From: Geosiphon pyriformis uo1
Taxonomy: Eukaryota > Fungi > Glomeromycota
Assembly: GCA_016748015.1 (NCBI GenBank)
Contig: JAAOMT010000776.1
Span: forward strand, 555,496 to 619,495
Reading direction: 5' to 3'
DNA length: 64,000 nucleotides
Each line of letters opens with the position of its first letter. Positions within the stretch are counted from its first letter, which is position 1. A program made the translations under genes and the position numbers. Of the stretch, positions 4,615-46,567 are shown in pieces. The notes beneath the pieces were generated by a model. That model was given only the letters and a program-made list of their open reading frames with translations, did not search any database and had not been told where the DNA came from.

Positions 4615-5299
4615 TGTTATGGGTTGGAGTAACAAGCTAATCATTACCAAGGGAAAACAGGATTGTAATAAAAATAATCAAAGAGAATTCAACTTCAAAG
4701 AGCAAATTGAATGAGTATAGATTCAATGTGTGAGATCAGTCTCATAAAATATTTCAGTCACTATACTTTTCAAAGATAACTGGGGAATCTGAAGGTAGAA
4801 AGATAGTCCATACTGTCAACAAATGATCACACCTGGTATAATTCTATGCCTTATGTTAGCACTCTTAGAATTCAATATCAGGTATCAGATGTATTCTTCA
4901 GTCACATTTTATTTAATAATCTTCAAATATTACAATTAGACATTTCAGGAAAAGGGTAAGAAATAACCAACAAGTGATTTTTTATCCCAAGATGTTCAGA
5001 TACTTGAAGGTAAAAAAAAGGAAATTAGTGATAAGAGAATGATTAAGATGAAAGTTGTTATTTTATTTATTTATTTCTTTTGATTCTTACATGCTTTTCT
5101 ACAGCTAAGAGATTCATTACTTATATAGCTATTAAAAGTAGTTAATGATTAGATTAATAATCAGGTCAATTATCAGATTAATAATCAGATCATTGATCAG
5201 ATCAATAATCACTTTTTAAAAATAGAGTGGCTAATTTATATAACATTAGTGGCTAATACATGTAATAATTAATAAGAAGTATAAGTTTCAACCATAATA
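4615..5299 (-). repeat. G1 3' LTR (685 bp)
   Basis: TGTTATGG...CCATAATA; aligns with 11625-12326. The PPT (GGAGAGGATGA on the minus strand) abuts it at 5300-5310. Confidence 0.93.
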
Positions 5300-5925
5300 T
5301 CATCCTCTCCAAAGAAATTGAGCTTTGGCGAAATCAAGCTATTTATAGTGTAATCTATTTGAAGAGTTTTATCTAACTCAAAGCTAACTAGTTTGTTGAA
5401 GTCTTTTGTGGATAAGGTATATAATACTTGAGACAAAATGAGTTTTGTATTCAAGAAACCAAATCTTTGTATTAAAGTTTTGGCTCTTCTAGCAATAGTT
5501 AAAACTCTTGAGATATCTAACCATATAATGCCCAAAATTTCTGTCTGTATCTCTAAAGTTGTTTTCTTTATGAGTTTCATATCCTCCATAATTTTACCAA
5601 GATGACTATAGAGTTCTAATTGCCTTTTATATGACAAGTTTTTGTCTATGGGTAAGATTTCTTGAAGTGTTTTTTCAATTGTGTTGAAAAGTGGGAGTAT
5701 AACTGCTGTTATATTTTCCAACAGATATTTATCCATTTTATTACCAATTTTTTCTCTTCTGATAGTAGTTTTCTTTGGTCTAATAACAGTATGTGTTCTA
5801 CTGTTATCAGTTATAATAGTTTGTTTTCCAATAGTCAAAGTAGCATTTGAATAGTTTTTGATCCAATACTTATAGAGAGTATAGAAAGCATTTTGAATGT
5901 TTTGATCCAAAAAATAATTGTTCAT
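5269..5925 (-). CDS. G1 accessory ORF3 (218 aa, unknown function), uninterrupted, reads through the PPT into the 3' LTR
   Basis: ORF track 5269-6021; first ATG at 5925 (MNNYFLDQNIQNAF...). Homologous to ORF3 of G2, G3 and G4. Confidence 0.7.
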   Translation of the reverse strand: MNNYFLDQNIQNAFYTLYKYWIKNYSNATLTIGKQTIITDNSRTHTVIRPKKTTIRREKIGNKMDKYLLENITAVILPLFNTIEKTLQEILPIDKNLSYKRQLELYSHLGKIMEDMKLIKKTTLEIQTEILGIIWLDISRVLTIARRAKTLIQRFGFLNTKLILSQVLYTLSTKDFNKLVSFELDKTLQIDYTINSLISPKLNFFGEDDIMVETYTSY

Positions 5926-5990
5926 GTCAATTGAAAATACTTCTGTTTTAGAAATAGTGCATTTATTTATACTTGATTTTTGCTGATTAT

Positions 5991-8900
5991 TTAAGTTGGT
6001 ATTACTACAATAGGCAACCAATTAGGTCATTTATAATATTTTTTGAGTCGTGTACCATGAACAGGATGATCATTGAAAATTGTTCCAGATTGATCTTAAA
6101 GAATATAAAAATTATTGTTTAAAACTTTGTTGACTATAAAAAGTCTTTTTCACTGGCTAGAAAATTTATTACCATAGACATTGTCTCTGTCTGAATGGTA
6201 TTCTAGTACCAAGTCACCAACACTTAAAGAAAGTGTTTTATAGGTTTTTTTTCTTTTAAGCTTTTCTTAGAACTGTTTTATTTTTTCAAAAGCAATTATT
6301 CATGTTTCTACCAAAGAGTCAAGAATGGTACCAAGTCTTCTTTGCAAAATATCTTTGTAATTTCTTATTGTAATTTTTTTAAAAGGTATTGTTTCAATGT
6401 CAGTTTCTATTGGTAATGTTGCCATGCATTCATAGAGCAGATAGAAAAGTTCATAACTTGTTATGTCATGATTTACAGTTCTATAAGCAAATAAAGCTGA
6501 AGGCAGTACTTTGTCCCATAAGTTTGTTTCTTTGGTTTTGGCTAAGGTTTTATATAATGTTCTATTGAAACATTCTATTAGGCCATTTGTTTAGAGGTGG
6601 TAAGGAAAGGAAAGTTTATGATGTATTTCCATTTTCTTACAAAGTTCTTCAACCAGTGTACCGAGAAAAGCTCTTTTTCTATCAGATAAAAGTTCTTTGG
6701 GGCAGCCATAATGGCAAATAATATCTTCATAAATGAAATTGGCTATTGAGACTGCTGTTTAGTCTGGGATGACTTTTGTTTCTACCCACTTTGTAAGATA
6801 GTCAGTAGCTGTAATAATATATCTATTGCCATCAGGAGTTATTGTTAAAGGTTCAACAACATTTATACCAATTCTGTCAAATAGTTGACCAACAGAGATT
6901 GGATGGATATCTTCTTTGCAATTGGGTTTGTTTCTTCTCTGGCAGATGTTACAGGTTTTAATGTATTCAGGAATGTTTTTTCCCAAAATAGACTAATAAT
7001 AGTGAGCTAAAGTTTTCTGAATTGTTTTTGTTTTACCAAAGTGTCCAGTTAATAGATCAGTATACATATTGTATATTACAATTTCTCTTTCTTCAAATCT
7101 GATGACTCTTTGGGAGTGGTTAGGATTTTTTCTGTTTCTTTTATATAATTGGTTCTGGCAGATCAAATAGAAATTTGATTGTTTGCACAAATGTTCTCTT
7201 TGCTGTCGAGTGTATTCTGGTGGGTATTGTTCTTTACCCAAAAATTTCATTAAGGCAAAGTAGTTGTCCAAGTTCATTATAATGTTTGTTTGTAAAGAAG
7301 TTACTAATAATTAAGTTGGTTTGGTTTGAGAGATTGTACTATTACTGGATGGTAAGTCTAAAAAGAGCATTGGCATTTTGATGATTTGTTCCTTTGTAGT
7401 GTTGAATATCATAGTCGAATTCATTCAAGTGGAGTATCCAACAAGTTATTTGTTTGTGTTTTAGCTTCTTTTTATTGTGCAGCCAAACCAAGACTTGATG
7501 ATCTGTTACCACTAAGAATTTTGCACCAAGAAGATATTGATCCCAGTAGTTAGTAGCCCAAACTACTGCTAGACATTCTTGTTCAGTAACTAAATAGTTT
7601 TTTTCTGCTGGTATAAGGGATCTACTGGCATATGCTATGGCATGTTTTCTGCCATTTTCATCTTTCTGTGAAAGAATAGCACCAAGTCTATAGCCAGATG
7701 CATTAGTGTAAAGGATAAAAGGTTGGTTCAGATCAGATTGTTTGAGAATTGGTTTAGTAATAAGTTTTTCCTTTAGAATTTCAAAAGCTTTTTGTTAATA
7801 AGTGCCTCAGTGATAATTGATATTTTTCTTAAGTAGCTGATTGAGAGAAAAGGCAATTTTGGAGAAATCCTTGATAAATTTGTGATAGTAAAAGGCCAAA
7901 CCAAGGAAAGAGCATAGTTCAAGAACATTTATTGGTTGTCTAATGTTCTGAACTTTTTTGACTTTAGCTGGGTCAAAAAAAATTTTATCTTTTGTAATAA
8001 GATGTCCAAAGAACTGGGTAGATTGGCATCCAAAAAAGATTTGATTGGGTTGATCTTAAGGCCAGCATTTCTAAGCAGATCAAAAACCTTCTGTAAATGT
8101 TCAAGGCGTCCATCCCAGATTTTTGAATATATCATTATGTTGTCAGATAAACCAGAACAAAGTTTTCTTTTACTGATTTAAACACCTTATCCATTAGGCA
8201 TTGAAAGGTGGAAGGAGCATTGGTAAGACCAAAAGACATGACTGTGAATTTATAAGTGCCATACTTGGTAATAAAAGAAGTTTTCTTTCTGCTTTCTGGA
8301 TCCATCTCTACTTGCCAGAATCCAACAGTTAAGTTAATGGTTGAAAAGAAAGCAGCACCATTGAATTTATCTAGCATTGCATCAATTTTGGAGAGTGAGT
8401 ACATGTTTCTTATAGTGATAGCATTTAGTTGGTGGTAGTCAACACAGAAGCATAGAGTTCCACTTTTCTTGAATATCACTACAACTGGAAAAGCCCATTT
8501 ACTCTTGGTTTCTTGTATGAAACCAAGATTTTTCATCCAGTTTATTTCTTTCTTGATAAACTTATTATTGTGTCGATTGGATTGATAAGGCTTCAAATAG
8601 ATAAGATGAGTTTTTTTTGTGGTGATAATATGTTGTATTATATGAGTTCATCCAGGAGTATTACTTTCTTTTGAGATAACTGGGCTATTTTTGGCCAACA
8701 GATTTTCAATATTCACTTTTTTTTCTTCAAGAGAAGGTTTTCTTTGTTCTATAACTAGTGATTGAATTTCAGGTGGTTTATTCTCAAAGGACTTTTGTAC
8801 TTTTTTAAGTTCTTTTCGAGATATCAAGCTAATTGGTTCCCAATCTTTGTAATAGATCAGGCAAAATTTGCATTTATTACTTGGTAAATACAAAGGTTTA

Positions 8901-9560: not shown

Positions 9561-9599
9561 ATACAAATCAGAGGAGTGACATTGCTGTTGTCAGCAAGT

Positions 9600-11554: not shown

Positions 11555-11600
11555 GTATAAATAATCACTTATACAATAAGAAACAGAGTGGATTTTGACA

Positions 11601-11618
11601 ACCTCACAGGGAGCACCA
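11601..11618 (-). promoter_or_regulatory. G1 primer binding site TGGTGCTCCCTGTGAGGT
   Basis: Starts with TGG, 6 nt from the LTR. Complementary to a tRNA 3' end CCUCACAGGGAGCACCA (elongator Met- or Ile(UAU)-like). Confidence 0.8.
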
Positions 11619-11624
11619 CTTTTA

Positions 11625-12326
11625 TGTTATAAGTTAAAGTAACAAGCTAACGGATAGCAAAGGAGAACAGGATTGTAGGATGATGAAAATAATCAAAGGA
11701 AATTCAACTTCAAAGAGCGAATTGAATAAGTATAGATTTAATATGTGAGATCAGTCTCATAAAATATCTCAGTCACTATACTTTTTAAAGATAACTGGAG
11801 AATTTGAATGTAGAAAAATAGTCTGTACTGTCAACAAATGATCACACCTGATATAATTCTATGTCTCACATTGATGTTCTTAGAATTCAATATCAGATAT
11901 CAGATGTACTCTTCAGTCACGTTTTATTTAATAATCTTCAAATGCTACAATTACACATTTTAGGAAAAGGATAAGAAATAACCAACAAGTGATCTTTTAT
12001 CTCAAGATGTTCAAATACTTGAAGGTAGGAAAAAGGAAATTAGCAATAAGAGAATGATTAAGATGAAAGTTGTTATTTTATTTATTTATTTTTTTTGATT
12101 CTTACATGCTTTTCTACAGTTAAGAGATTCATTGCTTATATAGCTATCAAAAGTGGTCAATGATCAGATCAATAATCAGGTCAATAATTAGGTCAATAAT
12201 TAGATTAATAATTAGGTCATTGATTAGGTCAATGATTACTTTCTAAAAATAAAATGGCTAATTTATATGACATCAGTGGCTAATACATGTGATAATTAAT
12301 AAGAAGTATAAGTTTCAACCATAACA
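11625..12326 (-). repeat. G1 5' LTR (702 bp)
   Basis: TGTTAT...CCATAACA. It has one more 13-bp array unit than the 3' LTR. Confidence 0.93.
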
Positions 12327-12330
12327 ATAT

Positions 12331-13900: not shown

Positions 13901-14692
13901 TGTTACTCATAAAAATTAGGAATTATAATAAATAAATAAAATAGGCAATTAGAAATAAGTATAATAAAAAGAGAAATTTTAGAATTCTTTTTAAAAAATT
14001 ACAGAATTTCTTTTAAAAGAATTGAAAAATTTTAAAAAATCTTATATAACATAAATTATGTATATATAATAAGAGTGTTAAAAGCAAAAAAATATTTAAA
14101 AAAAAACAATTCAGTTTAGAACAACATTACTTTTTGTTTAAAGAATAGTTTTCTATAACTTGAAGTAAAATTATATTTATATTAATAAAACATTTATTAT
14201 TATCCAAATTTATATTATTATTACTTGATTAAAGAAATATTAATTCATTTTACACTATCAATACTTTATGTTAATAGAATTTAATACTTAACCACACTAA
14301 ACCAATAATTTTTAATTACAGTTATTAACAGAATACTAATTTTTTATTTTTTATTTTTTTTTTGTTTTACTTTTTTGTTGTTTACTTATTGATTAAAAGA
14401 ATTAAGTACTAAATATTTAATGTTAAAAATAGCCTAGTAAAAAACTTAAAAACAAGAGTAGAAAACTTAAAATTAACTTACTAGAAAGGTATGACTGCCA
14501 AAATAAACTGGCTACAATACTGAAAAAAAATTTACAAAAAAAACTATTAATTAAATCTCTGTTTATTATATAAAAAACTCAACCAGAATCTTTAAACTTT
14601 AAAATCTTCAGAAATTATTATTATCAATAGCTATTAGCACTAAGTTACAGATTTGTTATTTGTTTTAATACTCCAAATAATTACTTGTAATA
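13901..14692 (+). repeat. G4 5' LTR
   Basis: TGTTACTCATAAAAA...TGTAATA; matches 27796-28693 and starts the same way as the G3 LTR. Confidence 0.85.
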
Positions 14693-14749
14693 TTTGGTGT
14701 TCTTTATAAGATATAATCTAACAAAAAACCAGTACTAACATCAATTATC

Positions 14750-18650: not shown

Positions 18651-18784
18651 TTTTTTTTTTTAAAATTTTAATAAGCAAAGTTTAAACACTGCCTAGTAAC
18701 AATACATCAAAATAATAATTTATACTAGGTGTAAATTATGCTTTTTCTACATGTAACTAGCCACTCAAGCTAACCAGGACAACA

Positions 18785-21700
18785 CTAAACACTCATATAT
18801 ACAGAAATCAAACTACCTATACCTGAGAAAAACCAACAGGAACTGCACAGCCCAAAACTAACACCAAAAGCATTGTCAATACCAAGTAACCTAACCATTT
18901 TGGCCAAAAGCATCGACATGTTACTAAATACCAAAACAGGAATTAAACCATTGCAAAGGATTAAACCATGTCTCTCCATAAAAGCATGATGCTTGAAGTG
19001 GACCAGCCAAATATCATTTCTAAAAGACAGACACAAACCACAAACAAACTCAACTACCTTACCAGATGCAATTTTAGAGTTATCAAAACAGGAAGCAACT
19101 TTCTGGTACCAATCCACAAGCACAAAATCTTTGCACAGCAAAGCAACCAGCCCCAAATTAGCCAAACAATTAGATAATATTTGAGACACATGAGAGGAGG
19201 CATGAGATAAACCAGACATAACTTTTCAAGCAGAAGCAAAATTAATGAACAACTAAAATCAAGCCGCTGCATCAAATACACAAGAGAAGACATGGTCCAA
19301 CATCTCAAAATTGCCACAATACAGACATATTACACTGGAATAATGTTTATTATAGAGGTGTTTACAAACAGCAACAGACAGCCTATGATATAAAGCTTTT
19401 ATAAAATAGGAACAGAAGCCAGCAGAGTAATAACTTGTAAAGCCAGCAGCCATATGGCCAAACAAGAGATGACCTAAACCAATTAATATCTGTAAACAGG
19501 CAACTGTCTACAATTTTGGCACCAGAGCCCAATTCCCAGCATGCATGATGAATAGACCAAAAAATATTATGAACAAAGTGTCTAGAGTTTCCAAAAACAA
19601 TACTGCCATTGGCCAAAACAAAACATTTCTTGAGCCAGGAAGGAAGGAGCTGGCCAGAATAAGAAGAAACACCAACAAGCAAGTCAGCTCAATTATTACT
19701 CAAAACACCTAAGTGTTCTTTAATTTTATGTCAGCCAACATTCAAATTTCTTTTACATATGATACCAGCAATGTGCTAACACTCAACCCAACATTTGTTC
19801 CAAAAATCTGGAACCAACAACAATAATTCAGATTTACATGCATTCAAAGCAACTTGGCTGTCAGAAAATAAATAAACCAAACTCGAACTAGACACACACT
19901 CAAGGGCTAATGCAATGGCTTGAAACTCCACCAATATAGAAGACATCATATCAGACATCTCCATTCCAAGACCTAAGTTAATGTTCTTAAAGAATGCAGC
20001 AGCACCAGCTTTCATATCAACACTTTCCAAGCCACAAAGAAAACCATTCATGTACACAGAAAAGCCAGAAATACTAATGCCTGACAACTGATCACATACT
20101 GACCTAAACTCATAAGATTCAAGAATATTTTTTGCAGCAGTATTATCCAGAAGGAAGGAACTGACATCAAGAGAACCAGAATCATAAAAATGCTGAATGA
20201 CAGTAACAAACCAAACAGGAACAGGACCACATGGATCAAGTTTTTTCTACTGCTTAAAAATTTTCCAATCAAAAACAGCACCATTCCAGCACCAAAGCTG
20301 CTCAACAAAAGCAATTCTATAATGATGAAGGGAGAGAAAATACTTGAAATACATTGACTTACCAAGAATCTCAGATAAAAGAGTTCCATTTCAAAAGTAA
20401 AAAGCATTGTATATAAGATTACTCAAAGATAAACCAGAGTCAAGAAAGACCCAAACCACATCTGCCAAGAAGTTGTTCAAAGGATTGACACTAATGCAAA
20501 CTGGAGAATATAAGAAATGTACTAAACACCAACTCAAAACCTGTAAGTCATGCAATTTGTGCATAAACAATTGGCCCAAAATTCCAACAGAGTTAGCAAA
20601 ACATACCACAACAGCAACCTTGTCTTTAGCCTAGACCTGCTCAAAAGTCTTTAAGCCATAAAATAAAGAGTGGTACAAAACATTGTTAGGAAAGTCCAGG
20701 AGCAGACCCGATTTTAGTTTCAGGCTTTTCTGAATTAAAACATCCCACTTTTAGTATACACTAGCGAAAATGAAGCTAAACTGGATTCTGTAACCAATAA
20801 TAAGATAAAGAACTGCTAATACAAAGTAAAAAAACTGTTTGTTCGAAATTGCTTTTCTCAGAACAAGATTGGCAAAAAACTAAACATCTGAATGTGCTTT
20901 GGCCAAGCTAAGCTTAGACAACCCATCAGAAGAAAGAAAGATATCAAGATATTGGTAAGACTTCCTCTTTTTGGTGATGGAAATAGAATTGCCACTAACA
21001 GACAAAAAAGAAACTGCTATCTTGCAATTAATTAGAATCACTACAGTCTTGTCATTGTTGATCAAGATATCATTCATCTTGAAAAATTCACTGGCAACAT
21101 TAAGAATGTGTTGTGTAGCCACCTAACTAGAACCAACTCATATAGTATTATTGACAAAAGCACTTACAACAAGAAAAAAGGTTAAACCATCCTGGAAATC
21201 TATGTGACCAGTTTTGGCAACATAATGCAAATTCAGTCTGTAATCACATACTGCCTCCTATCTTTTTATCTCACATAGCAAAGTATTATAAAAAATATGC
21301 CAAAAGAGAGGTGAAAATACTTCTCTCTGATCCAAGCCATCATAAACACTATAACCATCAGTTAATTCAAAATTAGTCATCACTCTGTTTGTACAACTAT
21401 TGTGAATACTCCCAAAAAATCTTATAAATTTACTGCATATCTTAATTCTAACCAAACTTTTTCTCAAATATTCCCAACTAACTAAATTATATGCTTTCCT
21501 CATGTCTTGCAGAACTAATCAAAGTTTGCGATTCTTCTTCAATGCATCCTTAACCACCAAACTAATAGCAAAAATAAAAGACTGTGTTGTTGTATCTTTA
21601 AGAACCAAGAAGTTATTACCACAAAAAACATCATACTTACTACACATCATGGAGATCCTGTTAGAGAAAATCTTGGAAAGAATTTTACAAGCAGTCTCAA

Positions 21701-27131: not shown

Positions 27132-27790
27132 ATAGAAATTACAAACAATATTTACTCCTTAGTCTAACAATTATTCCAATTCATTAGACATCAAAATTAA
27201 ACATACATATTATAATTAACCAACAAACTATATAATACAAAAACACAGAAAAAAAACCAAAACTCTAATATAAAATATTATATAAAGTATATATAAAGTC
27301 TAAAAACATAATAAATAATATAATAGCAAAAATAAAAATATTATTAGAAACACCAAAAATAATAGCACTATATAAGGAATTAATAGAAAAAAATTGGAAA
27401 TAGTAAACACAACCATTTTTAAGAAACTTTTGCTATTACTACTTAGAATAAAAACTTAATATACAGATAAAACAAAACAGATATTTGACATAAAATATTA
27501 CAACAAATTGAACAATTTGTAAAAAAAAACAATCTATTCACACAAACACAAGCAATATACTAATTACAAGCAAAATTTTATAAACATCTAAAAACACTAC
27601 TACATCCAACAATAAACACAGTAATTGTTAAACAATTAGAAAAAATCACCAATGTCCAATTTAAAAAATTACAGATCAAAATTGTTTAAGTAATTTTAGA
27701 AAAAAAAGTGATAAAATTAATCCAAAAGAGATATTTAAAAAAGCTAAAAAATTTAAAAAATTTCAAAAGAGCTCAATATTAAAAAAAAAT
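27132..27790 (+). pseudogene. G4 ORF3 remnant
   Basis: (M>I)EITNNIYSLV*QLFQF, LLCYYYLE and LLHPTINTVIVKQLEKITNVQF align with G3/G2 ORF3. Confidence 0.6.
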
Positions 27791-27795
27791 ATTAT

Positions 27796-30690: not shown

Positions 30691-31639
30691 TGTTACTGGA
30701 GGTTTTTGGTCTCTTTTTTTGAATGTTGTAAATGTCTGTTGGTTGCAAATTTACGTTTTCTAGAAGTAGTTGAACCTCCAATAACTGAATTTATCTTTAA
30801 ATTATCTCCTATAATTTGAACTGCTGGGCTTATAAGTAGAATGACCAATTCCATGCCAGTTACTTTATGTAGTTATGTTATAGTGAATGTCAACTCTTTC
30901 CCAGGAATTGCTTGTCTGGAAGCTTACTAAAAATGTGTAGTTACTTTGCTGTGAAAGTCAACTCTTCTACAGAAATCTTGTCTGTAGGCTACCTTAATGA
31001 TTGTAATAAGAAAAGAAAAAAAAAATAAAGAAATATAAAAGAAATAGAATTTTGTCAAGGGAAACGTTTTTTATCCAGACCTGGAGTCACTAACAGTTTA
31101 CTGAAATTGGTAGCTAATCAATTTCAAAACGTTAGTTGGGTTTTGAGGATTTTCCAAGTGCAATAATTAAAGAATTTGGTTTTTCAAATTATTTGATATT
31201 TATTTTTTTTTGTGTGTATAGGAATGGTTCTAAGTAATAAATCTAAAGTAAGATACATTTTTTTGAAAAGAAAAGCTCTTTTTTTATACAACTTGTTGTA
31301 GTACTAGTCTATGAACTTGCACTTTTTCTCTTTGCTCAAATTTCGGCAAACTAAAGTTACATTTTGATGAACTACAAGTTATTTTGCTAAACTATTGATT
31401 AATTTGGGTGAACTATTCATAATTTCGGCAAATTTCAGAATGTTACAAAGTTCAAAATATTGTGTAATTTGATCATCCTACTTTCTGTTATACTAATTAG
31501 ATTATTTAATTGAATCATAATATGTGATAATTGATTAAATAATAAATAATAATTTGAAATAATATTAATATACTAATTAATTATAGAAATTATAAGAGTA
31601 ATTTCATGCTAATTAATAGCTAAAATTCTACTGGTAACA
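30691..31639 (-). repeat. G2 3' LTR (949 bp)
   Basis: TGTTAC...CTGGTAACA. It lacks three array units (61 bp) present in the 5' LTR. Confidence 0.93.
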
Positions 31640-32327
31640 TAATCTTCTCTTCAAAATTAAGCTCTGTCAAAGTCCAAACACTATCTGTAATATTGAGATA
31701 GTGATCCAAAATAATTGAAGTAATCTGGTCTGAAAATTGTTGAAATTTCAGTTCTGTGAGTTTGCCAATGTATTGAACTTTCATTGGTTGTAGTATTGGA
31801 TTTTGTAGAACATTTTCACAAGTATTAAACAAATCATAGAGTCTAAAAGCTGCTCTAAGTTTGTAGTGAGTGTTTGTTGGTCCAGCTGCTGTTTTGAATT
31901 CATTATGAATTTGTTTTTGTATAGCTTCAGAAGTGAAATTTGTTGTTTCAAGTTCCAGTTTTTGTTCATAAAGTGTCTTTTCAATGTGAAAGTATTTATA
32001 GATAAGGGTGTGTCTATTGTTCTGTTTATTGAGAAGTAGTAGAAGTTTTTATTGCATTGTAGTATTTAGTGGAATGTCAATAGGGGCAATTAAAAGATTT
32101 TCTTCTAGTGCTTGCTTCAAAAGTCTTGGTAACCTATTTTCAAAGTGACTTCTTGTTTTTCTTCTATAGGGGTGATAGTTCTGTGAATGATTTGCTACTG
32201 GGGCTGTGGTTTCTTTCTGAATGTAATTAATTTGACTTCTATTAATTATTATGGATAAGTCAGGAAGTGTTTTTAAGGCTAACATTAACTTTTGGGATAT
32301 TTGTTGAATATTTCGGGGAATAATCAT
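31620..32327 (-). pseudogene. G2 accessory ORF3 (235 codons, one in-frame TAA at 32049-32051)
   Basis: ORF fragments 32049-32327 and 31620-31832 are in the same frame, and the sequence between them is open (KLLLLLNKQNNRHTLIYKYFHIEKTL...RAAFRLYDLF). Confidence 0.75.
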
Positions 32328-32469: not shown

Positions 32470-35140
32470 TTAAGTGTTCAAGTTTGGTTGTTGTTCTATT
32501 ATAATTATTGGTTCTAAATTTCGGAGAATATTTTCAGGATTAATTAAAGGGGAATGTGTACCAATTTGTGGAATTAATGTTTCAATCTGTTTCTATGTGT
32601 AACTTTTGCTAGTATTTTGTCATCAAGTCTTAACTTGTATGATCCATTGCCTAGAATTTCGTGAATATAAAATGGTCTATCCCATTTATTTTCAAATTTT
32701 TCATTCCATTGTTTTTTAGCCTTAGTTCTGTGTAAGAGAACTTTATTTCCAACTTTAAATTCATTAGTAATGGGTGGTAATTTGTTGTTATGTCTCTCTT
32801 TTTGGTAAGCTTGAGACTGTTCAATGTGAATTGCTGCTATCTTTCTTTTTTTTTCTAGTGTACTAAGAAGAGTGTAGGCCCTTCTTTGGAGTGTTTCTTG
32901 AAAGTTTTTTTCATTGATTGGTTGCACTGGGTATGTTTCCACTGTGAAATTAATTGGTAGCATTGCTGTTTTTCCATAAGTAAGATCAAATAATGTGTGT
33001 TTCATAGTATCTTGTTTTAGTGTTCTGTATGCTAGTTACACTGATGGAATAAAGATATCCCATTCCTGTTCAAAATTTGTTGAGACTTTGGCTAATGATT
33101 CACACAATGTTCTGTTGAAACATTCTACAAATCCATTTGTTTGAGAGTGATAAGGTGATAATAGAAGTCTTTTGACATTGAATTGTTCACAAATTTTTTG
33201 TATCAAGTTGTTCACAAAATGTGTTCCTTGATCAGATAAAAGTTCAATTGGGCATCCATGTCTACAAATAATGTCTTTATAGATGAAATTTGCTACTGAT
33301 TTTGTATCTGCTCTTTGAATGGCTCTAGCTTCAGGCCATTTGGTAAGATAATCTACTGCAACTGCAATATAACGATTTCTTTGGGTTGTGATAGGTAATG
33401 GTCTGACTAAATCAATTCCAACTCTGTCAAAAGATTGTCCAACTTTGATTGAATTTAGAGGTTCTGTGGGGCGAGTTCCTTTTCTTCTTTGACAACTATC
33501 ACAAGATTCTATATATTGTCAAATGTCTTTTTACATGTGAGGCCAAAAATAATGTTCAGACATTCTTTGAATTGTTCCATCTCTTCCCAAGTGTGCTGAA
33601 GACAAATCTGTGTACATGTTGTATAAAATTGTTTCTTTTTCATTCTCTTGTACTAATCTGAGTGGTTGATTTGGGTTTTTGTGATTTTTATAATAGATTT
33701 TGTTCTGGTGTATAAAATATTGTTTTGATTGGTGTTGTAAATAATGTTTTTCACTTGGAGACCAGTTTTCTGGCATAGTAAGAGTCTCCAAATAATTTTT
33801 AAGATTGCTGTAATTTCTGGAATTTATTCTTGTTTGGTTATTTTGTTGGTAGGTTGGTAAGTTGTGGTGGAATTGTTGTTGGTATTAATCTTGTCTTATT
33901 CTTAAGAGACTATCAACATTGGTATGTAGTTTTTCTGGTTTGTAGTGTACAATATATCTGTAATCTACTAGGAAGTTATTTCATTGAGACTGTTTGGCAT
34001 TTTGTTCAGTTTTCTTTTTATTGAGCCATTTGAGGCCAATGTTGTCTGTTATTATGTCAAATTTTTTTCTATTCTTCAGGTATTGTTGAAAATGTTTCAA
34101 AGCCTAGATGACTGCAGTGGCTTCTAATTCAGTTGATCTGTATTTTAGTTCTGTTGGTTTGAGTGTTCTACTAGCATAGATAATGACTTGTTCTTGCCCA
34201 TTTTCATTTAATTGTGATAAGATGGCACTAAATGCTATGTGTAAAGCATTAATGGCTAGTTGAAATTGTTTGTTAAAGTCTGGGTAAGCAAGAATTGGGG
34301 CTGTTGTCAATTTTGTTTTGAGGGTTTTAAAAGCTTTTTGTTGTTCTTTTGTTTATTTGTATGGCACATTTTTGTTGGTGAGATAATTGAGTGGTTTGGC
34401 AATTTCTGAGAATCCCTTTATGAATTTTCAATAGTAGGAGGCTAATCCTACAAATTCTCATAGTTCTGTGGTGTTTTTGGGAGTTTGAAAGTTTTTGACA
34501 GCACTGATTGTTCCTGGATTTGGTTTGACTCTCTCTTTACTAACTATGTGTCCAAAAAAGATCAAGCTTGTTTTTCCAAAATGACATTTTTTAATGTTCA
34601 ACTTTAATCCTGCTTTTTGTAATCATTGAAAAACTTCTCACAGGTGGATAAGGTGGGCTTCAAAACTTGGTGAGTATACATCAGTGTTGTCAAGATAGAC
34701 AACTACTGATTGCCATAAAAGTTCTTTATAGACAACATTCATAAGTCACTAAAATGTTGCTGGTGTATTGCAGAGTCCAAAAGGCATAACATTAAATTCA
34801 TAGTTTCTTTCTTGAGTGGTGAATGCTGTTTTGTGTCTATCTTTTGGGTCCATTTCGACTTGCCAGTATCCACTTTCCAAGTCTAAAGTTAAGAAAAACT
34901 TGGCTTTTCCTAAAGCATCTAACATGTTATCAATTCTTGGAAGAGGATAGGCATCTCTAATTGTGACACTATTCAATTGTCGATAATCAACACAGAATCT
35001 GATTTTTCTATTTTTTTTTTGACAAGAACTATTGGTGAGGCCCATGGACTTTTTGATGGTTGAATCAATCCGTTATTGAGCATTTTTTGAATCTCTTCTC
35101 TAATAAATTGGTGGCTAGTAGGTAGAATTCAATAGACTTG
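32470..35140 (-). pseudogene. G2 RT, RNase H and integrase
   Basis: FCVDYRQLN, LDLESGYWQV, MPFGLCNTPATF; APILAYPDF; WDRPFYIHEILGNGSYKL (GPY/F module). No chromodomain recognised. Confidence 0.93.
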
Positions 35141-35734
35141 TTGTCATTTTGGTAGAGCATCTCCTGTATGAATTTGGTGTTGAACAATATCCGTTTTTCC
35201 AAGGTCATTGTTGTTTTTTGCAAATATATCTGCAAATTCAGCTATCAATTGTTTTAATTGTTTTTGTTGTTGAGGTTCTAAGGGATCCATGTTGATTTGA
35301 GAGAGTTTTTCTTCCAAAAGATAATAGTTTTTAGTGATGAGAATGATATTTGAATTTGGGAGTAGAGTGTGCCTTACAATTTTGATGAAATTAGAGACAA
35401 TTTGAGGGTTTTCATCTTGAAAGATATTGTTGTGTATGATTCCAATTTCTACTTTGTTTAATAAGACAATAAGGTAATTATTGGGGTTGTAGAATGTAAC
35501 TCGAAATTTTTTCATTCTTTTGGGAATATAAACATTTGGAATTGAGATTTCATGCTTTAAACAGATTTGTTCATTGGATTCAAAGATTTGTTGGGTAGTA
35601 GTGGGTTTTGAACAAGTGTAAATTTTGTGATGTTCACCAAAAGATGAAATGGTAATTGGTTGGAGAAGTTGAAAAATCTGGTAAGATTCATTCTGTGTAT
35701 TAAGAGCTATATTTATTGGAACTGTAAATCGTCC

Positions 35735-36130
35735 AGTTGAACAAAAACCTTGTATTTCTCTTTCACTTTTTCCCAATTGTTCTCTGTTGTTAACTGATTG
35801 TAGACCCGAAATATTGATTAAGGGTAGGTAAATTGCTTGAGCAATTTTTTCAGCATGTTCAATCTTGAATGGTTTGTCTGTTTCATTCTGCAACATAATG
35901 GTAATGTCTCCAGTGTATTTTGCATCTATAACTCCTCCTTTAACATTGATTCCTTTGCTTGCCAATGATGATCTGAATGCAATTTGAACCATTGCTCTAG
36001 GTGGAATTTCAAGAGCAATTTTGAGATTGATTTTTGTCAAGAACTTTGGTTGGAGAACCAAAGTATCTTTTCCTGGATATCTTAGGTCATATTCAGCATT
36101 AATTTCATGTGCTTTTTCTGGTCTGATTCC
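35735..36130 (-). pseudogene. G2 dUTPase domain
   Basis: AEYDL (AGYDL), RSSLA, GGVIDAKYTG, IAQ and REIQGFCSTG correspond to trimeric dUTPase motifs 1-5. Confidence 0.92.
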
Positions 36131-36239
36131 TTGGCCATGGTTGTCAAAGTATTTAAGTTGTAAAGGTGGTTGCTTTTCAAAGAGATAGATGGGAGTGATT
36201 GGTAGTTTTTCTACCAGTTTAGATACTCCAAATTCGATT

Positions 36240-37460
36240 TCATTTTCATCATTTTTTTCTGACAGGAGAATGCTAAAAGCATAGTATTCTGAACACCATT
36301 TGTTATCACAAGGCATGATACATTCTTCACTCAATTGAATGTTCATTTGCTCTAATCATTGAATTTGAGCTTCTTGAGTTGGATATGTGTGGCTTGCTAT
36401 TTGGTGGTAGGTTTCTATTTCATTTTCATAATCAAATCTAGCTAATTTCATAGTATACTCAATGTATTTAGCTTTTTTCATTTGGTGGATATCTTCTTGG
36501 GTGGCTCTATTGATCAATGCCATTGCTAGGTCAAAAATCATTTCAGCATCATGAGGGTAGTGGTAAAGTTTATTGAGAGCACTGTTGTATGCTGCATCAA
36601 ATAGTGTTCCTCTTCTGACTTTTTTCGAAATTGATAAAACATATTGACAGGTCTGATCACATACTCCTTTTCTCATTGCTATATCAATTTAATTGCATTC
36701 TTTTGGTAGCATTTCTCCACAAGTAAGGCAAGGAGTTTTGTCCCATTTTCCACTTCTTTTTGGAGATCCAAATCGTTTTTTATGGCATGCTTTGCAAAAG
36801 TAATAGGTGCAAGTTTCATATTCCTCTTCTGGAGAAATACATGCTTCCATTGATGAAAGTTTTTTGTTACAATCTTTGCATTTGAGTGGAATATAGAGTG
36901 GTTGTTTTTGTGATTCTGGTGTAGAATATTTAACTTTCTTCCATTTTCTTGATTCTTCAAAAATCTCCTGTTCTGTTTCTTCAGCCCAATTGAATGTTAA
37001 TCCAAGAGCCATGTAGGTTTCAGTAAATGGCATTTCTTTCTCCTTTTCAAATTCAAATACTGGGGCTTTTTCTGATTGTTTGTTAAAAGTTTCACAAGTA
37101 GCAGATACTATGGTATATTGTCCTTGGTATGAGATTTTTAATTCCTGAGTTTCCCAGTCCAAGTTTGCATTGGTCTTGAGAAACCAATCATTTCCGATTA
37201 GAGCTTGGTATTGGGGTGCATCTATGACTAAAACTTTGACTGGAATGGTGATTCCATCAATGGTGAATAGAAAATTGTCAATTTCTCCTACTGGTGTCTT
37301 TTTCATATCATCTGCTGTAACAATTATAGTTTGGGCTGGTCTGTCAACAATTCTTTGAAACTGTTGTATTAACTGGTAGGTGATAATACTTCCAATTGAT
37401 TCACTGTCTAGAATTAGTCAAATGGGTTTTCCTTCTACTGTAGCTTCAGTATACATGGCA
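36240..37460 (-). pseudogene. G2 protease plus Cys-rich insertion
   Basis: LILDSESIGS (eroded DSG) and ALIGNDW, then CKDC, CKAC, CLTC, CDQTC and ECIMPC..WC. Confidence 0.8.
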
Positions 37461-39496: not shown

Positions 39497-39541
39497 TTTG
39501 AATTTGTTGTTGCTGTGTTATTTCCATGAAAGAGCACCAAA

Positions 39542-40551
39542 TGTTACCAGAGGTTTTTGGTCTCTTTTCTTGAATGTTGTAAATGTCTGGTGGTTGCAAA
39601 TTCACATTTTCTAGAAGTAGTTGAACCTCCAATAACTGAATTTATCTTCAAATTATCTCCTATAATTTGAATTGCTGGGCTTATAAGTGAAATGGCCAAT
39701 TCTATGCCAGTTACTTTATGTAGTTATGTTGTAGTGAACATCAATTCTTTCCCAGGAATTGCTTGTCTGGAAGCTCACTAAAAATGTGTAGTTACTTTGC
39801 TGTGAAAGTCAACTCTTCTACAGGAATCTTGTCTGTAGGCTACCTTAATGATTGTAATAAAAAAAGAAAAGAAAAATAAAAAAATATAAAAGAAATAGAA
39901 TTTTGTCAAGGGAAACGTTTTCTATTCAGGCCTGGAGTCACTAACAGTTTACTGAAATTGGTAGCTAATCAATTTCAAAACTTTAGTTGGGTTTTGAGGA
40001 TTTTCCAAGTGCAATAATTAAAAAATTTGGTTTTTCGAATTATTTGATATTTATTTTTTTTTGTGTGTATAGGAATAGTTCTAAGTAATAAATCTAAAGT
40101 AAGATACATTTTCTTGAAAAGAAAAGCTCTTCTTTTATACAACTTGTTGTAGTACTAGTCTATGAACTTGCACTTTTTCTCTTTGCTCAAATTTCGGCAA
40201 ACTAAAGATACATTTTGATGAACTACAAGTTATTTCACTGAACTATTGATTAATTTGGGTGAACTATTCATAATTTCGGCGAATTTCTATAAATTTCAGT
40301 GAATTTCTTATAAATTTCGGTGAATTTCTGTAAATTTCGACAAATTTCAGAATGTTACAAAGTTTAGGGTATTGTGTAATTTGATCATCCTACTTTCCAT
40401 TATACTAATTAGATTATTTAATTGAATCGTGATATGTAATAATTGATTAAATAATAAATGATGTTTTGAAATAATATTAATATATTAATTAATTATAGGA
40501 ATTATAAGGGTAATTTTATGCTAATTAATAGCTAAAATTCTACTGGTAACA
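39542..40551 (-). repeat. G2 5' LTR (1010 bp)
   Basis: Perfect 9-bp terminal inverted repeat TGTTACCAG...CTGGTAACA. Confidence 0.93.
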
Positions 40552-40673
40552 ATGTTTTACAAGTACAGCCCAATTACTATCTAATATACAAAGTCAAAAC
40601 TATGGACTCCAGTTAAATATAATTTATATATTTACCACATGTGACTAGTTACTTAGACTAATCAAAACAACAC

Positions 40674-43600
40674 TAAGCCCCTATATAAACAGAAGCTTTA
40701 TTATCAAAACCAGAAAAAAACAAGCAATTGTTTGGCAAAATTAACATCTATTGTGATAATATCTGTTTGTTTTAGGTAAACAAAAACCAAAACTAACTTC
40801 AAAAAAATCATTAATACCAATTAATCTAACCATATCATTCAATAAAACCAGTACTGAGCTAACAAATACTATAGGCACTATCTCTAAATTACTAATTAAA
40901 TTGTCTCTCTTCATATCTACTCTAAATCTAAACTTGAATTCCCACAACTCAGAATAGTATTGTATACTCAAATCATGTACGAAATTGACCAAGATCTGGA
41001 AAGTCTTCTTATAATTTTCAAAAATCTATACTGTTTCTTTAAACTACTCCACAAGCATAAAGTCCTTACAAAAAAGTTCATATCAACTGATATCAAATAA
41101 ACATAAGAGAAGAGATTTCACAACTATAGAAAAGATAAGAAGATGAAAACTAATTAGAGACTTCCAAACTGAAATATGCTTAAACAAAATTATCTTACAG
41201 AAAACAAACTTCTTACAACATATGAACACATGATCAGAAAACTTAATCTCTTCACAATGTAAACATAAAACACCAAAATAATATTTGTCATAAAGCCTTT
41301 TTCTAACAGCAACAGGCAGCCTTTCATAGACAGCTTTCATAAAATAAGTATGCAAGCCAGCTGAAATTCTGCTTATAGACTCTAACAGCATGTATAAATC
41401 TGAATGCCAAACTGCTACAGTATAGATTTAATTAATATTATAAACCAAAAAACCATCTAAAACTCTGGAACCAAGACCAATTTTTCAATGTACACAATTC
41501 ACTAACCTAAAAATGTCTTAAACAAAATAACAAACATTACTGGAAACTAGCAAACTATTAGCCACAATAAAGCATTCACACACATTAGTTGGTAGCAACA
41601 AAGAAAAATGAGCAGCTACCCTTGTTAAAGCATCTATGTAAACATTACTCAAAACTCTTGAATAGTTTTTGATCTTTGACCAGACCACAGAAATGTTCTT
41701 ATTAATAATCAAATTTGCAATATGTTTCCTTTCTATCCAACAACTACTATGAAAATTGGAACCAGACAACTCCAATTTTGAGACACATGCATCTAATACA
41801 GCTTAACTGTTCAAACACACCATCATTAAACAAAAAAAAAGCACACATTCCAAAGCCAAAGCAACAGCCTATAATTCAGCTATCATAGAAGACAAAAGCC
41901 CATTAACTCTAACTTCAATGTTCAAATTAATCTTAGGAAAAAATGCAGCAGCACTCCCAGTCATATTAACAAAACTGAGCTTTTTCAAAAAACCATTCAT
42001 ATAAACAATAAAAGTATTTGATCAGATTTCAAGCAAACCATTCTTAATATCAAAAAACTGACCAGATAACAAAACATTATTAAATCTAATACAAAATTCT
42101 TGTTAAAAAATGCTGATATGAGCACAGAATCACATAAAAACTTTGACACCAAATCTCTTTAAGAAACTAACACAATTATAATACAATAATAGCTCCAAAA
42201 CACTCAAAACAAGAAATCTGCCAAGACAAAGAAAAGCACAAGGCAAATTGTTCACTATAAAAATACTATTATTCAAAAAAACATGCATAATTTTAGCCAA
42301 AAAATTGTTTGAAAGATTAACACACAACTGTACTGAATATTGTAAAAGATTCGGAGAAGCCCAGCCCAAAACCTGCAAATCCAAAAATCTGTGCTTAAAA
42401 AGCCAACCAAAAATCCCAGAAGTATTAGCAAAAATAACAACTGAAGCTGACTTCTCTTCAGCCTGAATTTGCTCAAATGTTTTTAGATCATATAATAACA
42501 AATAATATAGCATTTTATTCAGAGAATTACAGAACAGCTCAACTTTTGACTTAAAACTTTTTTTAACCAAAGCATCTCAATGTCAATAAACAACAGAAAG
42601 AATAAAACTGAACTGAATACAGTAGTTAATAATAAACTGCAGAACTGCTAAGACCAAATACAAAAACTGCTTATCTGAAATAGCCTTTTTCAACACCATA
42701 TTAGAAAAAAACTTAACATCAGACTGAGTCTTAGCCAAACTGAGCTTGGATAAACCATCAGTAAACAAAAAGATATTCAAGTATCTGTAAAGTACACTAC
42801 ACTTGGCAATTGAAATAGGGGACTTACTAATTCTGAGAACTGTATTTTTAACTTTTCTATTAATAAGAATAACAACTGTTTTGTCATTATTGATTGAAAT
42901 GTCATTAATTAAGAAAAACTCACTGACAATGTCCAATATAAATTGTGTAGCAGCTTGACTATTCTTAACCCAGATAGTATTATTCACAAAAGCTTTAGTT
43001 GCAAAAAAAGAAATTATTCCATCCACATTATTAATTCTCCTTGTCTTGGCCACAAATTTGGTATCAATCCAGTAATCACATACACTCTTCTGTTTTTTGA
43101 TTTCACACAAAAAGAGGTCATAAAAAATTCACCAAAAAAGGGGAAAAAACACCTCACCTTAATCAAGATTATTAAACATCTAATACTCATTCGAAAGACC
43201 AAAATCTGTTATAACTCTGTTCAATTTATTCTCATAAATCCCACCAAAAAACTTAATGAATTTCTTACACATTTTAATATGCTGCAAATTAGCTCTCAAG
43301 TAATACCAATCAACTAAATCATATGCCTTGTGTATATCCTGCAAAACCAACCAAACTTTTTTGTTTTTTTCTAAAGCATCTTCAACTACTGAACCAACTG
43401 CAAAAATAGGAGACTGTGTTAAAGTATCTTTTAAAACAGAGAAATTATCTTTATAAAAAACACTAAATTTACTGCAGATAAAAGAAATTTGATTCAAGAG
43501 AATTTTAGAAAAAATCTTATGAGCAGTCTTAACTAAAGCAATAGAATGAGTATTTGTCAAGATGTTATCTTATTTGTAAGGTTTGAGTATTATTAAAATT

Positions 43601-45104
43601 TATGCTCTTTTCTATAAAATCAGAACAACATCCAACTTTAAACACAAATTCAAAAGATCCAAAAAACTTTTAAAAATGTTGTCATTATAATGTTTTTATA
43701 ATTTATTAAAAATATCACTGAAACCAGCAGCTTTCCTATCTGGTAAGTGTCTGACAACTTGAACCAACTCATTAAAACTAATAATATCTATAATACCAGA
43801 GAAAACATTATTATTTACATGCTGTAAAAAGGCATACTAGTGGGCCCAAAGATCAGACAAAGACTCAGAAACTGAATGCTTCTTAATTCACCCCTCCATT
43901 ATAGCATCAATCTTAAATTTAATATCATCAGAATTCAAAACCAGCTCATTATCAACAATTAAATAATTAAGAACCACTTTATAAAATGGCTTATCCAATA
44001 TACTCTTGATCATATGGCCTTTGTTTGAGCAGAAATTTTCTATTCTTCTATTAATAGCATATCTAATAGCAACAGATTTAGCAGTCTTAGATTTATGTAT
44101 CTTAAAACAATAGTAACTTTTCCTAAATCTGGACAAGCAACTAAAAATGTCCATATTGTTGGTGCTATTATTTAACATATACTGAATCTCAAAAGTCTTG
44201 ACTTTATTAGTGATTAACCAAACACCAAGAAATGAATTAGTTCTAAAAAAATTACCATATTGAAGAGACTTAACTATTTTGACAACCAGCAGTTTCAGCT
44301 TGAAAAACTTAAAAAATTGTCTGTTGAAAGAACATTTGACATTACAAAACCAATGTTTAGAAAAAACATTATTAGCCAAATCTATCATCACCTTCTTTAG
44401 CAAATTCCACATAGTATCAAAATTTCTATCAGTATTTGCAAATGAAAATTTACCAACTACAGAAAAAAACTTAACAGAAACACACTTTTTGAAACAAGCC
44501 CATTTGGGAGTATCTGCACCAGCAATTTTAAATTTCTAACAATCTTTATTAGCTTATTTGTGCAAACTATTCAAATGAAAATTCAAAAGTCCATCCAAAC
44601 CAATTGATATCATAAGAATTTTGTAATCAGTATTGAAGAAATCAGAAGCAGAAACAACTCCATGATTAGCAATCACTAATAATAGATACTTACTAACAAA
44701 AATGTAATCAATAATCTTCTCAACTCTTTTTAAATTGTTCCACATGGAAGTCTTGGTCAAATAATGACCACCAAGTGAATTAACCAAACTCAGATCCAAG
44801 CAGAATTGAAAGCTCACACTTTTATTAGAACTATTCTCATTAAAATTCTCACCCAAGACCACAAAAATGCTAGCATTAACTGTTCTTGCAATAAAAAAAT
44901 TAATTTCAACTGTCTGACCAAACCTAGTTTCAGCAGAGACATCAGCATACAAGCCTAAAATTGTGACCAAAAGCTTGTCCTTCAAAAAAAGCTGAACTGA
45001 AATAACATAACTAGGCACTTTCTCAATCTTAGAAACATATTAAGCCAGGAAATTGTTTATAATAATTGCCATTCCAGCACCAAGAAAACTTTTATTCAAA
45101 CCAG
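40674..45104 (-). pseudogene. LINE-B ORF2 (C-part of EN, RT, RNase H, zinc finger)
   Basis: IDYIFVS, QDIHKAYD, AFVNNTIW (eroded FVDD), CLHCEEIKFSDHVFIC. Confidence 0.88.
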
Positions 45105-45917
45105 TATTACAGATGATTATTTGGGATCTCAAATCAAATAACAAATCTATAACTTAGTGCTTAATATTTTGACAATACTGGTAATACTGGTATGTTGGTT
45201 GTATCTGAAGGTTTTAGAGTTGAGTCTTTTGTATAATGGACAGAGATTCAATGACAATGTAGTTGGTTGGTGAATTGTGTTCCCAATTTCTGTCTTCAAC
45301 TTAGTGGCCAGTTTATTCTGGCAGTCATGCCCTTCTGGTAAGCTATCTATTAATATATATATAATTTTACTCTTATTTCTGGGTCTTTTACTAGGCTATC
45401 CATGACATCAATTACTCAGTGCTTTAATCCTTAATCAGTTAGTATACGATAGTAAAAATCAAAGAAAGAAATAAATAAAAGAAAATAAAAAAAAAAGCCA
45501 AGGTAATGTGTATGTTATTATCTCATCAATAGCCATAATTAAGAGCTATTGTTCCAGTGTGGTTAGGTATCAATTATTATTAACATAAAGTGTTGATAGT
45601 AGAGAGTGGATTTGGATAGTAAATGATTTATTTATTTAATATTTGTGGATGGAAGATTTCTAACTTAAGAATTCTCTCTTTTTCTATTTCTAATACTACT
45701 ATTATATATACATAATTGATGTTCTATAAGATTACTCATATTCCCAAGCAATGTGCTATAATTTCTTGAGCAATGCTCACATTGCTCTATATTGCTGAGC
45801 AATGTGTTGTGATTTCTATTATTGTTCTATATTGCTAAGCAATATGCTTATATGCTACATACTATTCACTCATTGGTCTACTATTCTCTATATCTGTTTT
45901 TCTTTTTATGAGTAACA
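45105..45917 (-). repeat. G3 3' LTR (813 bp)
   Basis: TATTAC (eroded TGTTAC)...GAGTAACA. Confidence 0.93.
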
Positions 45918-45924
45918 TTATCTT

Positions 45925-46567
45925 CTCTTTTTTAATATTGAGCTCTGTCAAAATCTTCATTTTGAATTAGCTTTAATATTTCTTTTTCTAATATTGTTTG
46001 TTTGACTTTATTTTTCACATCTTCTACTTGTACATTGTTTATTCTTCCCCATTGGTTAATGGTTATGGTTTCTATGTTAGAGTGTAATAGTATTTTTGGA
46101 TAGTTCTAAAATATATTGTGCAGTCAATAAATTGTTCTCACATGTAGTATTGAGTTTGTCTTTTTTCTAATAAATTCTTCAATTTGCTGTATTATGTTTT
46201 GGTTAAATATCCTCTTGGATTTGTCAATATACAACTCTTGAATATTCAACTTTCGACCTAACTGGTAATAATAATACAATATTAGAAGTTGTTCTGTCTA
46301 TTGCTTCTAATTCTCTTTTGTAAGTTCTTCTGTTGGTGCCATAATAGATATTTTTCCAAAAGTGTTCTTTACTTTTTCTATTATTTTATCTGACCAGTTT
46401 TTATCATTCTTTGGTAACCGCTAATATGGTGTATTCTTTGTTTTTTTTTTGGTGTTTTGATAGCAAATTGTTTGGTTGTTAATGATAATTTCCATGTCTA
46501 AGGGTTGTTGACTTAAGGCCTAGAATAATTGTTGAGCTATGATGTGAATATGATCTGGTATTTCCAT
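45925..46567 (-). pseudogene. G3 accessory ORF3 (frameshifted)
   Basis: MEIPDHIHIIAQQLF*ALSQQPLDMEIIINNQTI...YYYYQLGRKL...YPKILLHSNIETITINQWGRINNVQV. Confidence 0.72.

Follow-up and report, generated by a model that had tools for sequence, protein, structure and literature searches.

What is encoded by the extra open reading frame (ORF) between the integrase gene and the 3´ long terminal repeat (LTR) of gypsy retrotransposons in the fungus Geosiphon pyriformis, and is it a gene at all? We addressed this question for a 64-kb stretch of G. pyriformis DNA (64,000 nucleotides of contig JAAOMT010000776.1; hereafter the window) that contains four gypsy elements, with G1, G2 and G3 on the minus strand and G4, which is heavily decayed, on the plus strand. 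A preliminary description of the window had claimed a separate ORF of ~220-235 aa, here called ORF3, in all four elements and had proposed that it is a lineage-wide accessory gene for a soluble helical protein, perhaps a transactivator or anti-silencing factor. The analysis reported here indicates that ORF3 is an apparently undescribed accessory gene, real and selected, in a position class that is already known.

Open frames, selection and family membership of ORF3

In G1, ORF3 is fully open (5269-5925, minus strand, 218 aa). Stops number 13-23 in each of the remaining five frames of this segment. Across 1000 composition-matched shuffles, open frames reached at most 125 codons compared to 250 observed, so frames of the G1 length are not a chance product. 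The G2 ORF3 (31620-32327, minus strand) has 235 codons with one internal stop, at codon 93, and the G3 ORF3 (45932-46567, minus strand) has 211 codons with six internal stops; the latter terminates at codon 212 (45932), the same end as in its intact relative P0244. For G4, we detected a relic (27132-27780, plus strand) made up of three pieces (27132-27197, 27203-27466 and 27489-27731) in two frames with 8 stops. The separate ORF claimed for all four elements is thus present in G1, G2 and G3, with the lesions noted, but not in G4, where it is reduced to a frameshifted remnant. All of the sequence blocks quoted previously are present. The G1 and G2 frames were also correctly described as reading through the polypurine tract into the U3 (unique 3´) region, as they end 35 and 20 nt, respectively, inside the 3´ LTR; the G3 ORF3 stops just before the tract.

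Selection was assessed in a DNA-level alignment of G3 and G4. Raw identity at codon positions 1/2/3 was 0.63/0.75/0.57 for ORF3, and since it was flat for the integrase control, the comparison was repeated with transversions and A/T sites only, which C-to-T decay leaves untouched. With this restriction, ORF3 showed 33/23/52 transversions at codon positions 1/2/3 (~207 sites each; position 2 versus 3, p=2e-4). The integrase gave the same codon-position pattern (p=0.02), while the LTR control was flat (p=0.73). This codon-periodic divergence is the pattern expected for a gene under selection, and ORF3 is very probably a real gene that was selected. Fixed differences between the two closest subfamilies, G2a and G2b, were concentrated in the N-terminal part of the protein and spared the predicted helical core (p=9e-5), a pattern that recombination could also generate.

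Comparison of the G2 and G3 ORF3 profiles using hhalign gave E=2-3e-4 over ~170 columns, with a score above 40 of 40 block shuffles, and the intact proteins P0124 and P0244 were related with a shuffle p of 3e-6. The family profile matched the G4 relic with E values of 6e-14 and 2e-12. On these alignments, the assignment of the G2, G3 and G4 ORF3s to one protein family is solid. Within the family, the G4 relic shows 56% identity to one subfamily versus 35% to that of G3 over the same 79 residues. The previous treatment of G3 and G4 as one group is therefore appropriate for the integrase and the downstream half of the LTR, which they have in common, but not for ORF3, for which they belong to different subfamilies.

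Relatives of the G1 ORF3 numbered 126 among 303 candidates and those of the G2 ORF3 202 among 430 candidates; in both cases, all 120 of those listed by name were from G. pyriformis. A search of 1.84 billion proteins with the combined G2 and G3 profile matched 71 cluster representatives at E up to 0.001. Most (67) sort into six subfamilies at 55% identity or more, with one looser member and three apart. Identity between subfamilies is 25-39%, except for the G2a/G2b pair (67%). A source check on 20 of the 71 representatives revealed 17 from G. pyriformis, while P0276, P0280 and P0313 are ENA or JGI metagenome records; five more of the 71, named in the searches for G2 and G3 relatives, are also from G. 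pyriformis. The scan of metagenomes for ORF3 relatives yielded at least one locus, L001, which carries P0280 in a near-intact gypsy element with reverse transcriptase, RNase H, integrase, ORF3, polypurine tract and LTR in the same order as in the window and with an ORF3 that terminates inside U3. No relatives were found in the viral contigs and prokaryote genomes scanned. The several subfamilies at this level of divergence and the recurrence of the layout in L001 bear out the lineage-wide accessory gene proposed initially. We also noted that many G. pyriformis "hypothetical proteins" (among P0002-P0315) stem from gene models that join ORF3 to pieces of integrase, gag or long interspersed nuclear elements (LINEs), and are therefore products of transposon annotation.

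The position of G1 was less clear, and similarity among the profiles of all four ORFs, as implied in the preliminary description, is obtained for G2, G3 and G4 with G1 at the border. In several profile comparisons and a hidden Markov model test, the G1 ORF3 was not significantly related to the family and scored no better than shuffles. It could represent a separate capture of an unrelated protein into the same slot, a possibility that is independent of what ORF3 does. The G1 integrase is likewise an outlier (39-41% identity), no dUTPase-bearing segment was seen in this element, and the structure model of its ORF3 is of low confidence (predicted local distance difference test score, pLDDT, 45.6), too low for a fold search with it to be informative. 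Using a cleaner profile, however, hhalign aligned the G1 ORF3 with the family in the register noted previously (E=0.0076, 111 columns), and none of 40 block shuffles scored as high. Three G1 copies also aligned colinearly with P0280 over 200 residues (p=1e-3, 2e-3 and 2e-2), while most of the other 21 pairs in this 24-pair test were not significant. The G1 and family models have the same predicted order of helix, hairpin and helices, and the ORFs have the same length, position and 9-nt motif ahead of the polypurine tract. Because of the profile match, the P0280 alignment and these common features, we consider it probable that the G1 ORF3 is a remote homolog of the family and rather unlikely that it was captured separately.

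The 9-nt motif, located just before the polypurine tract (45937-45945, minus strand, in G3), is also found at 5325, 31664 and 27769 and in L001, and is thus common to all five elements. Given that two different frames run through it, a cis element is likely.

The integrase as a separate coding unit

The Ty3/gypsy order of protease, reverse transcriptase, RNase H and integrase is present in G1, G2, G3 and L001, and paired LTRs, a polypurine tract and 4-bp target duplications are found for G1, G2 and G3; the ends of G4 are decayed. The integrase does not share one frame with reverse transcriptase and RNase H, as is usual for gypsy elements: RNase H is followed by a stop at all four junctions examined (G1, 7344-7277; G2, 33887-33816; G3, 48039-48005; and L001, positions 770-800 of that locus). 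The G1 integrase (6027-7277, minus strand) is a separate, decayed ORF with an ATG at 7277 and a frame shifted relative to RNase H, whose stops are at 7344-7339. Similarly, the decayed G3 integrase ORF (46631-48005, minus strand, 3´ end approximate) has an ATG at 48005 and a frame that differs from that of RNase H (stop at 48039-48037). The G2 integrase (32574-33830, minus strand) lies behind an in-frame stop (33887-33885) and has ATA where G1, G3 and L001 have a start codon. Single lesions are possible, with three of the four copies decayed, but the position of the break recurs. The integrase is its own ORF, so that these elements have three or more coding units, of which ORF3 comes last. The split integrase points to an additional expression strategy; neither it nor the U3 arrays described below were recognized in the preliminary description.

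We also detected a dUTPase match (PF00692) in the pol segments of G2 (35147-36355, minus strand; E=5.6e-19) and G3 (49411-50286, minus strand; E=9.2e-15). In both elements, a long Cys-rich insert lies between the protease and the dUTPase; neither the insert nor the dUTPase was seen in G1. A second, weak protease-like match (PF03539, E=0.0017) follows the dUTPase in G2. At 25400-25700, G4 seems to pass from the dUTPase region directly to the integrase region, the reverse transcriptase and RNase H apparently having been deleted.

The ORF3 protein and its possible functions

For all seven ORF3 proteins examined, the highest 19-residue hydropathy was 0.44-1.44, indicating no hydrophobic segment. 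The proteins, of 210-240 aa, have 0-2 cysteines, and most have a short basic patch near residue 50. An AlphaFold2 model based on a 23-sequence alignment reached a pLDDT of 78.6 (85-95 in the core). In this model, an N-terminal helix and beta-hairpin are connected through a basic linker, predicted to be disordered, to a helical core (residues ~80-220) whose last element is a long helix. Hydrophobic residues, Gly, Asn and Tyr account for most of the conserved columns, and no acidic or His cluster is seen. A homodimer prediction, in which the alignment was not used, scored 0.01 and carries no weight either way. No sequence matches above threshold were found in Pfam, PHROGs, NCBIfam or the PDB, and at E 0.001 the model had no Foldseek match in either the PDB or BFVD. 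VIA-align found no solved chain with Z of 5 or more, though a missing match does not demonstrate a new fold. A search of Atlas gave no usable match for the G1 ORF3 and scores under 0.9 for G2b.

Several types of protein could be discarded. An env-like protein was rejected given the lack of a transmembrane segment in the seven hydropathy profiles and the all-soluble model. A chromodomain was rejected given that no chromo family was found in Pfam scans of the ORF3s or of the integrase tails of G2 and L001 and that the predicted fold is helical. For an enzyme (GDSL esterase, DEDDy nuclease or 2OG oxygenase), there was neither a Pfam match nor a catalytic-type acidic/His cluster. The characterization of ORF3 as soluble, mainly helical, not env-like and not a chromodomain is thus upheld by hydropathy, Pfam and the AlphaFold2 model, and no match to a described env, chromodomain or other known gypsy extra ORF family was found.

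If ORF3 acts on DNA of its own element, the U3 region is the candidate target. Tandem arrays are present in U3, upstream of a TATA-like box, and differ from family to family. For G1, in which the LTRs (3´ LTR at 4615-5303 and 5´ LTR at 11625-12329, minus strand) are flanked by the target duplication ATAT, the unit is 12 nt, with arrays at 5131-5211 and, in 7.8 copies, at 12147-12238. For G2 (3´ LTR at 30690-31639 and 5´ LTR at 39542-40551, minus strand; target duplication ATGT), the units are near-palindromes of 20 nt, with arrays at 31336-31444 and, in 8 copies, at 40189-40351. The G3 array, with a 40-nt period and a palindromic core, was mapped to 54916-55023 in the 5´ LTR (54238-55094; 3´ LTR at 45103-45917, minus strand; target duplication CCAG). 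G4, with heavily decayed LTRs of approximate ends (5´ LTR at 13901-14710 and 3´ LTR at 27786-28690, plus strand), has a different unit (27855-27938), and L001 has a three-fold motif. Copy number is unequal between the two LTRs in both G2 and G3. Nearly all differences between the LTR pairs of G1, G2 and G3 are transitions. The G2 5´ array contains 5 CpG in 163 nt versus 19 in the 7902-nt internal region, for which protection from methylation or merely a CG-rich motif are both possible.

We tentatively favor the reading that ORF3 encodes a family-specific LTR-binding transactivator or anti-silencer, without rating it as high as an even chance, because six features point in this direction. First, ORF3 outpaces the integrase, with identities among G2, G3 and L001 of 26-30% and 52-58%, respectively. 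Second, ORF3 changes together with the U3 array: G3 and G4 have integrases with 0.76-0.82 nucleotide identity and a common downstream LTR half, but their ORF3 subfamilies differ and LTR identity drops to the shuffled level (0.48-0.52) across the array. Third, putative copies of the U3 motif precede the gene. A weak copy in G2 (32516-32532, minus strand) is 205 nt upstream of the ORF3 ATG and is the best internal match in 7.9 kb; a weak copy in G1 (6021-6032, minus strand) is 107 nt upstream and is the second-best internal match in 6.3 kb; and a copy in L001 is 180 nt upstream and is the best match in 3.1 kb. These sites, in three of the four elements scanned, are a hint that the gene itself is a target. 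Fourth, the core is predicted to be helical. Fifth, the host appears to lose CpG: the whole window has a G+C content of 28% and strong CpG depletion (observed/expected 0.16). Sixth, the VANC proteins of Arabidopsis, discussed below, provide a precedent. The transactivator or anti-silencing factor suggested in the preliminary description is thus also the best reading reached here, on indirect evidence.

The proposed mechanism would start with a short ORF3 transcript, initiated or spliced in the 60-250 nt spacer that separates ORF3 from the integrase. The basic patch would take the protein into the nucleus, where the U3 array, and the copy of its motif that precedes ORF3, would be recognized by the helical core. 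Protein and array would drift together between families. In this way, LTR transcription could be maintained even though the host likely represses its transposons through CpG methylation; a study of Rhizophagus reports CG methylation of its transposons (PMC8647823). A bolder version, which we regard as doubtful, is that these elements make up a "complex" clade of fungal retrotransposons, with gag-pol, a stand-alone integrase and a regulator as their three coding units. In such elements, ORF3 would be a sequence-specific DNA-binding protein, possibly derived from a bacterial helix-turn-helix protein of the ParB/YhcG type, that binds arrays in U3 and at its own gene in a feedback loop against CpG silencing like those of Tas or VANC.

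Several observations weigh against a DNA-binding regulator. In an 8-mer count test, the significance of the arrays was strong only for the G3 5´ LTR (0 of 200) and L001 (4 of 200), and there was none for the G1 and G2 3´ LTRs. Fast evolution is a general property of U3 arrays in LTR elements, and such arrays may be bound by host factors. No motif copy was found upstream of ORF3 in G3 (best rank 33). The G1 and G2 copies had already been noticed visually when the scan was run, chance matches in other elements score at least as high, and a first, out-of-register G1 matrix failed to rank the G1 site. A BLOSUM-based test for more conservative substitutions between than within ORF3 subfamilies was null (p=0.30). 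In addition, P0276 and P0280 are acidic overall, with isoelectric points of 5.9 and 5.4.

The matches of ORF3 to bacterial proteins would speak for a DNA-binding regulator, but they are faint. DUF1016_N (PF17761) matched ORF3 at E 0.037-0.12 in Pfam, at 0.85 in Atlas, and at E 0.012-0.064 by hhalign with a 13-sequence profile, where G2a, G2b, G3 and the pooled profile all aligned in the same register. The Pfam cut-off of 32.8 bits was not reached (12.9 bits for P0167; best E 0.037, in 3 of 23 members). None of 40 shuffles scored as high for G2b, but 3 of 40 block shuffles matched the score of the pooled profile, and unrelated NCBIfam families match the same ORF3 proteins at E ~5e-4, lower than DUF1016_N. 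DUF1016_N itself is said to be mainly helical, without a confident fold (PMC1189080). Weak fold matches were seen for Spo0J (Z 4.2, rmsd, root-mean-square deviation, 5.3, 92 residues aligned), the KorB DNA-binding domain (Z 3.8, rmsd 5.0, 95 aligned) and ParB (Z 3.3, rmsd 3.1, 59 aligned), and these scores of 3.3-4.2 are tied with those of unrelated chains. Although all of these echoes fall in the helical core, we treat them, being at noise level, as a lead and no more.

The main rival to the transactivator is a Rev- or CERV-like RNA factor that would bind element RNA and export unspliced genomes or balance integrase production. Three or more coding units, namely gag-pol to RNase H, integrase and ORF3, require several transcripts or reinitiation, and the stop after RNase H together with the distinct integrase start (an ATG in G1, G3 and L001 and ATA in G2) would fit an element that manages its transcripts in this way. 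The short Arg/Lys patch, the conserved cis motif ahead of the polypurine tract, and the pyrimidine-rich, AG-ending stretches seen by eye before the ORF3 ATG in G1 and G2 are also consistent with an RNA factor, as is the precedent of CERV, encoded by Cer1 of Caenorhabditis elegans, which is reported to be made from a spliced mRNA and to export genomic RNA (PMC10309623). The weak fold matches include the helical domain of PNPase (Z 4.6, rmsd 2.0, 60 aligned), but again at noise level. An RNA factor alone would leave unexplained why ORF3 subfamily and U3 array differ jointly between G3 and G4 and why motif copies lie ahead of ORF3, and we regard it as unlikely.

A role as integrase partner, in which ORF3 would direct or shield the integration complex as the in-trans counterpart of a chromovirus chromodomain, would account for the location of ORF3 directly after the integrase and for the integrase C-termini scanned (G2 and L001), which have a weak SH3-like tail and no chromodomain. 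The roughly two-fold greater divergence of ORF3 and the association of near-identical G3 and G4 integrases with different ORF3 subfamilies are more in keeping with DNA than with a fixed protein as the partner of ORF3, making this alternative improbable. Still less probable is a role in the virus-like particle, as a structural or movement protein serving spread among the nuclei of the coenocytic hypha without a membrane envelope: ORF3 occupies the env position and a filamentous-virus capsid protein is among the weak fold matches (Z 3.9, rmsd 3.2, 67 aligned), but the latter is at noise level and the ORF3 proteins lack a hydrophobic segment and have few cysteines. That ORF3 is a functionless open frame passively copied along with the elements, as the decay of the copies in the window might suggest, is hardly credible given the codon-periodic divergence, the confident fold prediction and the maintenance of the frame across subfamilies at 25-39% identity and in L001.

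Genomic surroundings and comparison with known systems

The gypsy elements are interspersed with decayed LINE-like sequence at 18700-25400, 40600-45100 and 55100-57200 (weak RVT_1 match); one copy is nested in G4 and another is apparently split by G3. Primer-binding-site-like sequences follow the 5´ LTRs of G1 (11595-11624), G2 (39510-39541) and G3 (54208-54237), with those of G1 and G3 nearly identical and that of G2 departing after 8 nt. Within 56280-64000, long inverted repeats (56280-57372 and 63005-64000) bound a CpG-retaining segment that contains a run of N, a weak match to a centromere-protein helix-turn-helix domain (59226-59495) and a PP2C match (60068-60844).

LTR sequences are given as 41.2% of the G. 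pyriformis genome in one report (PMC11952901). If the transactivator reading is correct, an element-encoded regulator would be a testable reason for the success of LTR elements under methylation pressure, and the feedback loop against CpG silencing, if it exists, could explain their expansion in this lineage. A direct test is possible because each family supplies a matched protein and a candidate target array. In addition, several hundred G. pyriformis "hypothetical proteins" are reassigned to a single gene family of transposons. For most extra ORFs located between pol and the 3´ LTR, no role has been assigned, and few such ORFs have been described in fungi. In the open-access literature, exclusive of supplements, the Geosiphon genome paper and repeat-library entries, we found no description of the ORF3 family or of a split integrase in these fungi.

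Among known systems, the foamy virus Tas and HTLV Tax proteins are encoded by 3´-end accessory genes that reach toward or into U3, and their targets are repeated LTR elements; Tas additionally activates an internal promoter located upstream of its coding region. The Geosiphon elements differ in having no env, no sequence or fold match was found for ORF3, and its activity is proposed here by analogy. The bacterial proteins with weak, below-threshold matches to the ORF3 core, YhcG (whose N-terminus is DUF1016_N) and ParB/Spo0J/KorB, differ from ORF3, which has no nuclease or ParB N-terminal domain.

Closer in position are the sense additional ORFs between pol and the 3´ LTR, a known class that comprises the aORF-3S of plants (PMC7264820) and the ORF3s of bdelloid rotifers (PMC5408684). 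They resemble the Geosiphon ORF3 in position, orientation and presence in many copies per family, and the bdelloid elements also pair ORF3 with a dUTPase in pol (PMC5408684). The Geosiphon ORF3 differs from them in having no membrane segment, no GDSL or DEDDy match and no known family, in overlapping or abutting the polypurine tract, in following a separate integrase, and in its fungal host. The third gene of Oikopleura Tor3b/4b is likewise separated from pol by a spacer and is transcribed from an internal promoter (PMC4402516); it encodes a membrane glycoprotein, whereas ORF3 does not appear to, and an internal promoter would have to be assumed for ORF3. CERV, as described, is another non-env accessory protein of a gypsy-type element (PMC10309623). 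Finally, the VANC proteins of Arabidopsis VANDAL elements differ from ORF3 in that VANDALs are DNA transposons, no sequence link was found, and binding and demethylation have been shown for VANC but are only inferred for ORF3. Nevertheless, VANC is, like ORF3, a small, fast-diverging, element-encoded protein associated with family-specific tandem repeats in the non-coding DNA of the element, and VANC proteins and their tandem-repeat targets diverge together (PMC5735166), as we propose for ORF3 and the U3 arrays.

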